DNA of 6,634 nucleotides from IMG/VR virus record IMGVR_UViG_2698536379_000001; one strand, 5' to 3'. Every line of letters begins with the position of its first letter. The stretch's first letter is position 1. The position numbers and the translations under genes are program-made. The notes under the pieces were generated by a model. The model was not told the origin of the DNA, did no database searches, and was given only the letters and a program-made list of their open reading frames with translations. Positions 6,138 to 6,386 of the stretch are shown one piece after another. The DNA comes from a virus. Its lineage: Monodnaviria; Loebvirae; Hofneiviricota; Faserviricetes; Tubulavirales; Inoviridae.

Positions 6138-6386
6138 ATGGCTGATTCGGCGCGGCAGCATTCATCGGGGCTTATCATGGAAAAATTCATGACACATCAG
6201 GAGCTGAAAGTGATGCTTCTCAAAGATCCAGCATTCCGGGCTGCTTATGAAGCTGAGAGCCAGAACCCGCAATCCGGTTACCAGATTATCCGGCATCATG
6301 GTGATGGCACTGAAGAAGTGGTGTTTGATTCTCGTGTATCAGGTACAGATTTACCAACTAACTGGATGAACAGGCCTGATTGGTGA
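6138..6386 (+). CDS. Hypothetical small protein (accessory ORF adjacent to the attachment site); start codon uncertain
   Basis: 82-aa ORF. In-frame alternative starts are ATG 6177 (GGGG 6 nt upstream), ATG 6189, and GTG 6210 / ATG 6213 (AGGAG at 6199..6203). The region looks more GC-rich than the phage core by eye. No recognisable motif. Confidence 0.4.
   Translation: MADSARQHSSGLIMEKFMTHQELKVMLLKDPAFRAAYEAESQNPQSGYQIIRHHGDGTEEVVFDSRVSGTDLPTNWMNRPDW

Follow-up and report, generated by a model that had tools for sequence, protein, structure and literature searches.

A small conserved gene beside dif in a CUS-1/YpfPhi-type filamentous prophage probably belongs to the attP-proximal module rather than to the cargo

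The DNA studied here, a stretch of 6,634 nt that we call the window, begins with an HTH repressor gene on the minus strand (1-447). To its right follow a pII-type replication gene (619-1671, Phage_CRI + G2P_X_C), a pV-like gene, small coat genes, a pIII-like gene (570 aa), a DUF2523 pVI-like gene, the Zot/pI gene (4603-5628) and a pIV secretin gene of which only an N-terminal piece is left; a perfect dif site lies at the right end. In megablast, the right-hand kilobase corresponds to E. coli prophages of UTI89, NU14, DEC5E and others, which are the O18:K1:H7 strains with CUS-1. Moreover, Y. pestis carries two tandem prophage copies with proteins that are 97-100% identical to those of the window in each comparison. 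The gene content, the dif site, the megablast matches and the identities to the Y. pestis proteins thus identify the window as a filamentous prophage of the CUS-1/YpfPhi type that has integrated at E. coli dif. The phage-derived sequence extends to about position 6541, where the homology to the junction of the tandem copies in Y. pestis ends; beyond the equivalent of this position, the Y. pestis junction continues with the phage attP and then with a second inverted dif-like site. The features at the right end of the prophage are:

5628-6056, plus strand: truncated secretin gene (pIV/GspD), 142 aa, delimited by blastn against DEC5E
6062-6105, plus strand: intergenic 19-bp hairpin (inverted repeat I1) 5' of orf69, from DNA folding and comparison
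6138-6176, plus strand: in-frame extension upstream of orf69, evaluated by motif alignment; in the Ff-like phage L024 its ATG is lost and the frame is offset
6177-6386, plus strand: orf69, a 69-aa coding sequence of the YPO2281 / PHROG 6642 family, from profile match, conserved start and dN/dS
6387-6526, plus strand: spacer between the orf69 stop codon and dif, from sequence comparison
6527-6554, plus strand: dif / attR, a perfect match to E. coli dif, GGTGCGCATAATGTATATTATGTTAAAT
6527-6537, 6538-6543 and 6544-6554, plus strand: XerC arm, central region and XerD arm of dif

An 82-aa ORF had been described at 6138-6386 between the secretin gene and dif, and it is indeed present there on the plus strand, with several in-frame starts: ATG 6138 (82 aa), ATG 6177 (69 aa), ATG 6189 (65 aa, the RefSeq call), GTG 6210 (58 aa) and ATG 6213 (57 aa). 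All 69 positions of the PHROG 6642 profile are covered by residues 14-82 of this ORF (E=1.1e-53), and in nine homologues from eight to nine lineages, including Pectobacterium, Brenneria, Pantoea, Xenorhabdus, Klebsiella, Yersinia and Erwinia, the start lies at the equivalent of ATG 6177, with a G-rich motif 5-9 nt upstream. In the window, a Shine-Dalgarno-like GGGG is located at 6167-6170. It is therefore very probable that the ORF is a genuine gene that starts at ATG 6177 and encodes a 69-aa product; we refer to it as orf69. The 82-aa product from ATG 6138 could not be upheld, as the homologous proteins begin at M14 and the extension is not conserved as coding sequence: in L024, ATA stands in place of ATG 6138 and the frame is shifted by 1 nt ahead of the conserved ATG, and the gene calls upstream of this ATG extend or frameshift in various ways (P0001, P0003). 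The segment 6138-6176 is most likely a non-coding leader. It contains the motif TTCGGCGCGGCAGCATTC (6146-6163, 14-31 nt 5' of the conserved ATG), which does not vary even in phage-less relics; within it, the core GCGC.GCAGC (6150-6159) is shared by 8/8 aligned sequences, these relics included. The motif could be part of a leader or an operator. A search for a consensus sigma-70 promoter upstream of orf69 found none. The preliminary description had also considered a shorter product from GTG 6210 or ATG 6213. The AGGAG in front of these codons exists (6199-6203), but the two starts are not conserved: the residues aligned to 6210 and 6213 in the homologues are not Val/Met, and the AGGAG is coding sequence for a conserved Q-E-L. 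Similarly, the base composition does differ from that of the phage core, but only modestly: the ORF has 46.2% GC (GC3 42.9%), the stretch 6035-6526 has 46-49% and the prophage overall has 41.7%, but 250-nt segments elsewhere in the core go up to 50%.

The comparison across lineages demonstrates that orf69 is coding and kept by purifying selection. In the 52-codon core of eight lineages, pairwise dN/dS ranges from 0.07 to 0.33, and the differences at codon positions 1, 2 and 3 amount to 260, 222 and 672, respectively; it is this excess at the third position together with the dN/dS values that identifies a genuine gene. As had been expected for a real gene, the reading frame is retained across genera, with dN/dS well below 1. 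RefSeq contains the protein as WP_001298440.1 (65 aa from ATG 6189) with no function annotated, and the PHROG 6642 family is likewise annotated without function. Two ORFs beside attR of YpfPhi, YPO2280a and YPO2281, have been reported to have no predictable function and to possess homologues in CUS-1 (PMC4266046). orf69 is clearly a homologue of one of them and, on the basis of gene order only, it is most likely the dif-proximal YPO2281 rather than YPO2280a. orf69 is 97-100% identical to the CUS-1/YpfPhi copies (97% to those in the tandem prophages of Y. pestis) and is the same gene, again the last ORF before attR/dif. The gene itself is thus not new but is an already annotated hypothetical protein gene of a described phage family. 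What differs from the RefSeq coding sequence of CUS-1 is the start, ATG 6189 there and ATG 6177 as supported by our comparison.

The product lacks a recognisable domain, as had been noted from the sequence: Pfam, NCBIfam and PADLOC were all without match, in the case of Pfam for the window protein and 19 family members even at E<=1. A PDB profile search with orf69 gave only noise (E>2), tblastn against 50,697 phage records yielded no match, and an Rfam search returned nothing relevant. A profile search of 1.84 billion representatives recovered only 35 matches, nearly all of them proteins of 40-100 aa, and the relatives with a named source organism come from genera of the Enterobacterales. Multi-repeat profile matches (P0039, P0045-47) were discarded as non-homologous, since only the beta-hairpin 'DGT..FDS' of repeat proteins was aligned. 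The orf69 product has a pI of 5.1, a net charge of -4 (to -11 in relatives) and a GRAVY of -0.82 (family range -0.8 to -1.1). A search for a signal peptide or a hydrophobic or membrane segment found none, so it does not resemble a secreted, toxin-like product. The AF2 model has a mean pLDDT of 76 (about 85 over residues 1-55), with helices at residues 7-15 and 18-28 and beta strands at 36-40 and 46-51; the conserved core comprises residues 1-52 and is followed by a variable C-terminal tail, which is disordered in the model. We infer a small, acidic, cytoplasmic protein that is predicted to consist of two helices and a beta-hairpin. Fold searches with orf69 matched no known fold. Xis/winged-helix excisionases have a similar order of two helices and a hairpin, and their hairpin resembles orf69 in 'DG.E..F.S'. 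This candidate was dropped in view of the acidic protein and the empty fold searches. The N-terminal motif 'LLKDPEFRAAYEAE' has a likeness to the N-termini of Xre-type antitoxins, which no profile search recovered.

The prophage copy in the window has suffered a deletion immediately upstream of this region. A blastn comparison with DEC5E places a 1217-bp deletion at the junction 6034/6035: window position 6034 corresponds to L002 6783 (L002 is the DEC5E locus) and 6035 to L002 8001, so that the segment L002 6784-8000 is missing, as is also seen in comparison with UTI89. The deletion removed GspD residues ~137-414 together with a basic 82-aa ORF, orf82, that normally precedes orf69; in UTI89 and DEC5E, the secretin gene is annotated as full-length. 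Compared with YpfPhi/CUS-1, the window copy thus lacks orf82 and most of pIV. The junction was present in 0/5,426 complete E. coli genomes and missing from all fetched loci, and it shows no obvious microhomology. With most of the pIV secretin lost, this copy is not expected to export virions by itself. The absent orf82 (L002 7710-7958) encodes a product of pI 11.3, opposite in charge to that of orf69, and has a counterpart with 68% identity in a Phage_GPA-type Xenorhabdus inovirus. It could not be assigned to a family, with no significant match in Pfam, NCBIfam or PADLOC, and is probably the YPO2280a homologue. On the other side of orf69, a 78-aa minus-strand ORF runs from the window edge over dif into the spacer (6398-6634). 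It has no family match and no annotation in RefSeq relatives, and it is probably spurious.

orf69 is present in every full-length CUS-1/Ypf-type relative that we examined, i. e. in E. coli UTI89 and DEC5E, both Y. pestis copies, Pectobacterium, a circular contig of 8.6 kb and ten contigs from IMG/VR. In UTI89, DEC5E, Y. pestis and Pectobacterium it occupies the same position as the last rightward ORF before attR/dif; the proteins of the Pectobacterium phage are 58-88% identical to their CUS-1 counterparts, with 40% for the repressor. Family members are also found in inoviruses of the Ff-like, Rep_trans and Phage_GPA types, where no further rightward gene ever follows them. In the CRI-type phages (the window, L005, L016) and the Ff-like phages (L024-27, L042) this gene ends 38-140 nt before a double inverted dif-like attP, and in the Rep_trans-type phage L022 its stop codon lies ~55 nt from attP. 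In the GPA-type Xenorhabdus-like phages L023 and L032 it likewise ends the series of rightward genes, with one ORF before the attP-like site in L023. The spacer 6387-6526 has counterparts in the E. coli, Yersinia, Klebsiella and Ff-like versions; it is missing in Pectobacterium, Brenneria and L016, where the orf69 stop codon is ~38 nt from dif/attP. The attP consists of two inverted dif-like sites that flank a GC-rich hairpin, as in CTXPhi, and in the CUS-1 and Ff-like types the sites read GGCCGCTGCG...CGCAGCGGCC. This arrangement can be read from the tandem junction of Y. pestis (L006 10345-10450), from the ends of L016 and L022, which are complete, circularly permuted phage genomes, and from the tandem junction of L027 (~10340-10440). 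From its sequence, the double dif-like attP is a predicted folded single-strand substrate of the CTXPhi type.

The relation between CUS-1 and the Ff-like phages is most informative for the affiliation of orf69. The Ff-like inoviruses (L024/26/27, L042) are equipped with G7P, a gp8-type coat protein, a G3P pilus-binding domain and DUF5455, and the replication and structural genes of CUS-1 and L024 have no detectable similarity. Their nucleotide sequences share only two segments: the left-end gene for a 139-aa protein (83% identity) and a 520-bp block that corresponds to window 6051-6554 and comprises the hairpin, orf69, the spacer and dif (81%). Both segments flank attP in the circular genome. 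Moreover, orf69 is inherited independently of the repressor: it is 95-98% identical in L007 and L041 (98% in L007), the repressors of which are only 40% identical, and it is still 77% identical in L024, where the repressor position holds an unrelated 71-aa gene. These data demonstrate that a block of ~0.5 kb (the intergenic hairpin, orf69 and attP) recombines as a unit among otherwise unrelated dif-integrating inoviruses of the Enterobacterales. The sharing of the block, the position at attP and the independence from the repressor therefore place orf69 in an attP-proximal module and not in the morphogenesis, replication or immunity modules. All in all, orf69 is probably a gene of the phage backbone, carried with attP, rather than cargo. 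The 19-bp hairpin of the block has a DNA folding energy of -22.5 kcal/mol (z = -2.6) and is kept in five phages with one compensatory pair, with hardly any change among CUS-1, the Pectobacterium phage and the Ff-like phage. It could serve as a packaging signal or as the minus-strand origin of the single-stranded DNA genome.

The preliminary description had regarded the ORF as a candidate accessory gene in the position of phage cargo. The position next to attR is indeed the slot that has been likened to that of ctxAB in the YpfPhi literature (PMC4266046), and orf69 is a real gene that is not recognisable as a replication or morphogenesis gene. The analogy to cargo fails, as the gene does not vary in presence or absence among related dif prophages but is found in all full-length relatives compared. 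The replacement of genes between otherwise near-identical phages occurs at the opposite end of the prophage, left of the repressor and beyond a conserved 139-aa membrane protein (PHROG 4174). The genes found in this slot are:

DEC5E (L002 1-650): TIR-domain protein
NC101 (L019 1127-2562): STM4504/CBY_0614-family protein
L022 (377-1162): DpnII/MboI-like endonuclease
UTI89 (L003 1-1547): a different protein of 369 aa
L016: DUF2158

Judged by analogy, this left-end slot looks like a site of defence cargo, as reported for Vibrio inoviruses. In YpfPhi, the left-end genes are YPO2271/2272 (PMC4266046). A separate case is a relic in an Erwinia MAG (L011 10252-11009), in which two ORFs (155 aa and 98 aa) lie between the orf69 homologue and dif, along with a short duplication of the 3' end of orf69. 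Cargo can therefore also enter between orf69 and attP.

Lysogens tolerate the loss of orf69. E. coli NC101 harbors two complete tandem prophages, and both copies (L019 588-1130 and 9856-10400) carry the same in-frame deletion of 31 codons of the orf69 core, which joins MEKFMTHQE to HGDGTEE...; orf82 is intact in both. The same pattern with 63% coverage was found in at least five other complete genomes. As both NC101 copies lack the core, orf69 is not needed for the viability of the lysogen and possibly not for the formation of tandem arrays either, and we infer that it is accessory. As prophages decay, the gene is left behind beside dif: stand-alone copies with no recognisable phage genes upstream are present in Brenneria, Pantoea, Erwinia and Serratia, and in a relic of Xenorhabdus mauleonii, dif is inverted and ~500 nt away from orf69. 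A domestication of these relic copies was rejected since two Brenneria copies differ by a dS of 0.48, far below the 1.3-1.6 of the flanking chromosomal orthologues; the relics are therefore recent, independent remnants. Their position is the simplest explanation for this survival, as selection acts against deletions that extend into dif. Diverged family members (47-57% identity) are located on an integrase island (L029 10001-14090; L030 7146-11235), with a Gabija-like OLD-TOPRIM/UvrD pair 312 nt downstream, and others on a Rep3/Mob plasmid of ~9.5 kb from Y. enterocolitica (L020/L021), adjoining TIR and nSTAND genes. These plasmid and island members have no dif-like site nearby, and the island sub-lineage (L029 and a Serratia copy, L028) shares an upstream region of its own that is AT-rich and conserved.

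What could the function of orf69 be? The gene would be transcribed as the last one of the rightward operon (pII to pIV). DNA binding appears unlikely for an acidic product of ~55 residues, which would probably act by binding another protein. The partner would most likely be a conserved host component or a step of lysogeny, i. e. Xer/dif integration or maintenance, because orf69 stays 77-98% identical through module swaps and travels with the host-constrained attP. Vibrio CTX-I phages provide a possible parallel, as xafT is the terminal gene before attP in their conserved lysogeny module (PMC12715192). As with XafT (the Xer activation factor with DUF3653 of TLCPhi and Vibrio CTX-I), orf69 is a small gene immediately before a dif-like attP, and in both cases the surrounding module is exchanged between unrelated phages. 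However, orf69 is acidic, has no sequence or domain similarity to XafT and lacks the DUF3653 HTH, and its attP is a CTX-type double inverted site that is not known to need XerD activation; its role would thus be functionally analogous to, not homologous with, that of XafT. A lysogeny- or Xer-linked protein-binding mechanism, proposed by this analogy, is tentative and of low probability. It is tempting to speculate further that orf69 may represent a new class of small acidic phage factors tied to the CTX-type double attP in the Enterobacterales, which would bind XerC/D, FtsK-gamma or Nth as a host component of the Xer/dif pathway, favour integration or tandem arrays or make them more stable, and move with attP as a non-homologous counterpart of XafT; in this specific form, the idea is unlikely. 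Domain, family and fold searches found no homology linking orf69 to Xer, dif or another partner. Moreover, family members exist on the plasmid and the island in the absence of dif-like sites, and the NC101 deletion is tolerated. According to a study on CTX-type integration in V. cholerae (PMC3442271), XerCD and a host factor suffice, which also counts against an Xer-linked role. The linkage to attP could be sufficiently explained by hitch-hiking beside a recombination site. Taken together, the combination of a real gene, an attP module and the proposed mechanism has, in our view, an even chance of being correct.

Several other explanations have to be weighed against this protein-binding, attP-linked reading. 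That orf69 is a chance ORF over conserved cis-acting DNA next to attP might be suspected from the high conservation of the flanking non-coding DNA, the many competing starts and the lack of a known function for the family. The excess of third-position changes and the dN/dS far below 1 across genera effectively refute this, and the conserved length and start and the confident AF2 core (pLDDT ~85 for residues 1-55) point in the same direction, so that its probability is negligible. The product might also be an antidote or partner of the basic orf82 protein, in a toxin-antitoxin-like or a regulator/anti-regulator pair. The opposite charges (pI 11.3 vs 5.1), the co-occurrence in CRI-type and GPA-type phages, and the retention of orf69 after the loss of orf82 in the relics and in the window would fit such a pair; however, the position beside dif explains this retention by itself, the Ff-like L024 and the Rep_trans-type L022 carry orf69 without orf82, and no toxin-antitoxin family was matched in Pfam, NCBIfam or PADLOC. 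With orf82 intact in both NC101 copies that have lost the orf69 core, and with the orf82-free phages, a type II toxin-antitoxin pair was rejected, and a pairing of any kind is very improbable.

Two further explanations concern an effect on the host. A small, strongly acidic protein (-4 to -11) with a disordered tail could be an inhibitor in anti-defence or host takeover that blocks a conserved nuclease, defence or stress component of the host during chronic infection. Its high conservation amid varying phage modules suggests a conserved host target, and its mobility extends from phages to a plasmid and to islands with many defence genes; but such proximity is expected for any gene in hotspots of mobile genetic elements, the last position in the operon is late for a takeover function, and there is no likeness to a known anti-defence protein or fold. 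We consider this unlikely. Still less probable is the view that orf69 is host-interaction or virulence cargo, i. e. a moron in the ctxAB slot that is expressed in the lysogen and benefits the bacterium. It can draw on the relative position, which equals that of ctxAB, and on the modest in vivo fitness effects of YpfPhi and CUS-1 (PMC4266046), as well as on the slightly elevated GC content and the dispensability for the lysogen. Against it stand the invariable presence of the gene across four inovirus lineages, with the variable genes elsewhere, the lack of a signal peptide or membrane segment, the promoter search without a consensus match, and the relic copies, which are recent acquisitions and not domesticated genes (dS 0.48 vs 1.3-1.6). 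Like ctxAB of CTXPhi, orf69 is distal to the assembly genes and adjoins the attachment site; unlike ctxAB, it is neither a toxin nor secreted nor variable, and it is common to several phage lineages. RstC, the antirepressor of the RS1 satellite, is similarly a small non-structural protein at the end of a dif-integrated filamentous element. The tblastn search of the 50,697 phage records gave no match, however, and orf69 does not co-vary with the repressor; this speaks against a repressor-specific, RstC-like antirepressor, given repressors of 40% identity next to orf69 copies of 95-98% in L007 and L041.

CUS-1 and YpfPhi have been linked to high-virulence E. coli K1 and pandemic Y. pestis, respectively, and the ORFs at the prophage ends are a stated open question for both (PMC4266046). 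To this, our analysis adds the corrected start of orf69, the evidence for purifying selection, its assignment to the attP module and the site that the actual cargo occupies. For the biology of these phages, this means that the ORF next to dif is no virulence cargo of particular strains and that the search for determinants of host fitness moves to the variable left end with its TIR, restriction and other defence genes. For orf69 itself, a lysogeny- or Xer-linked protein binder provides a concrete and testable hypothesis.
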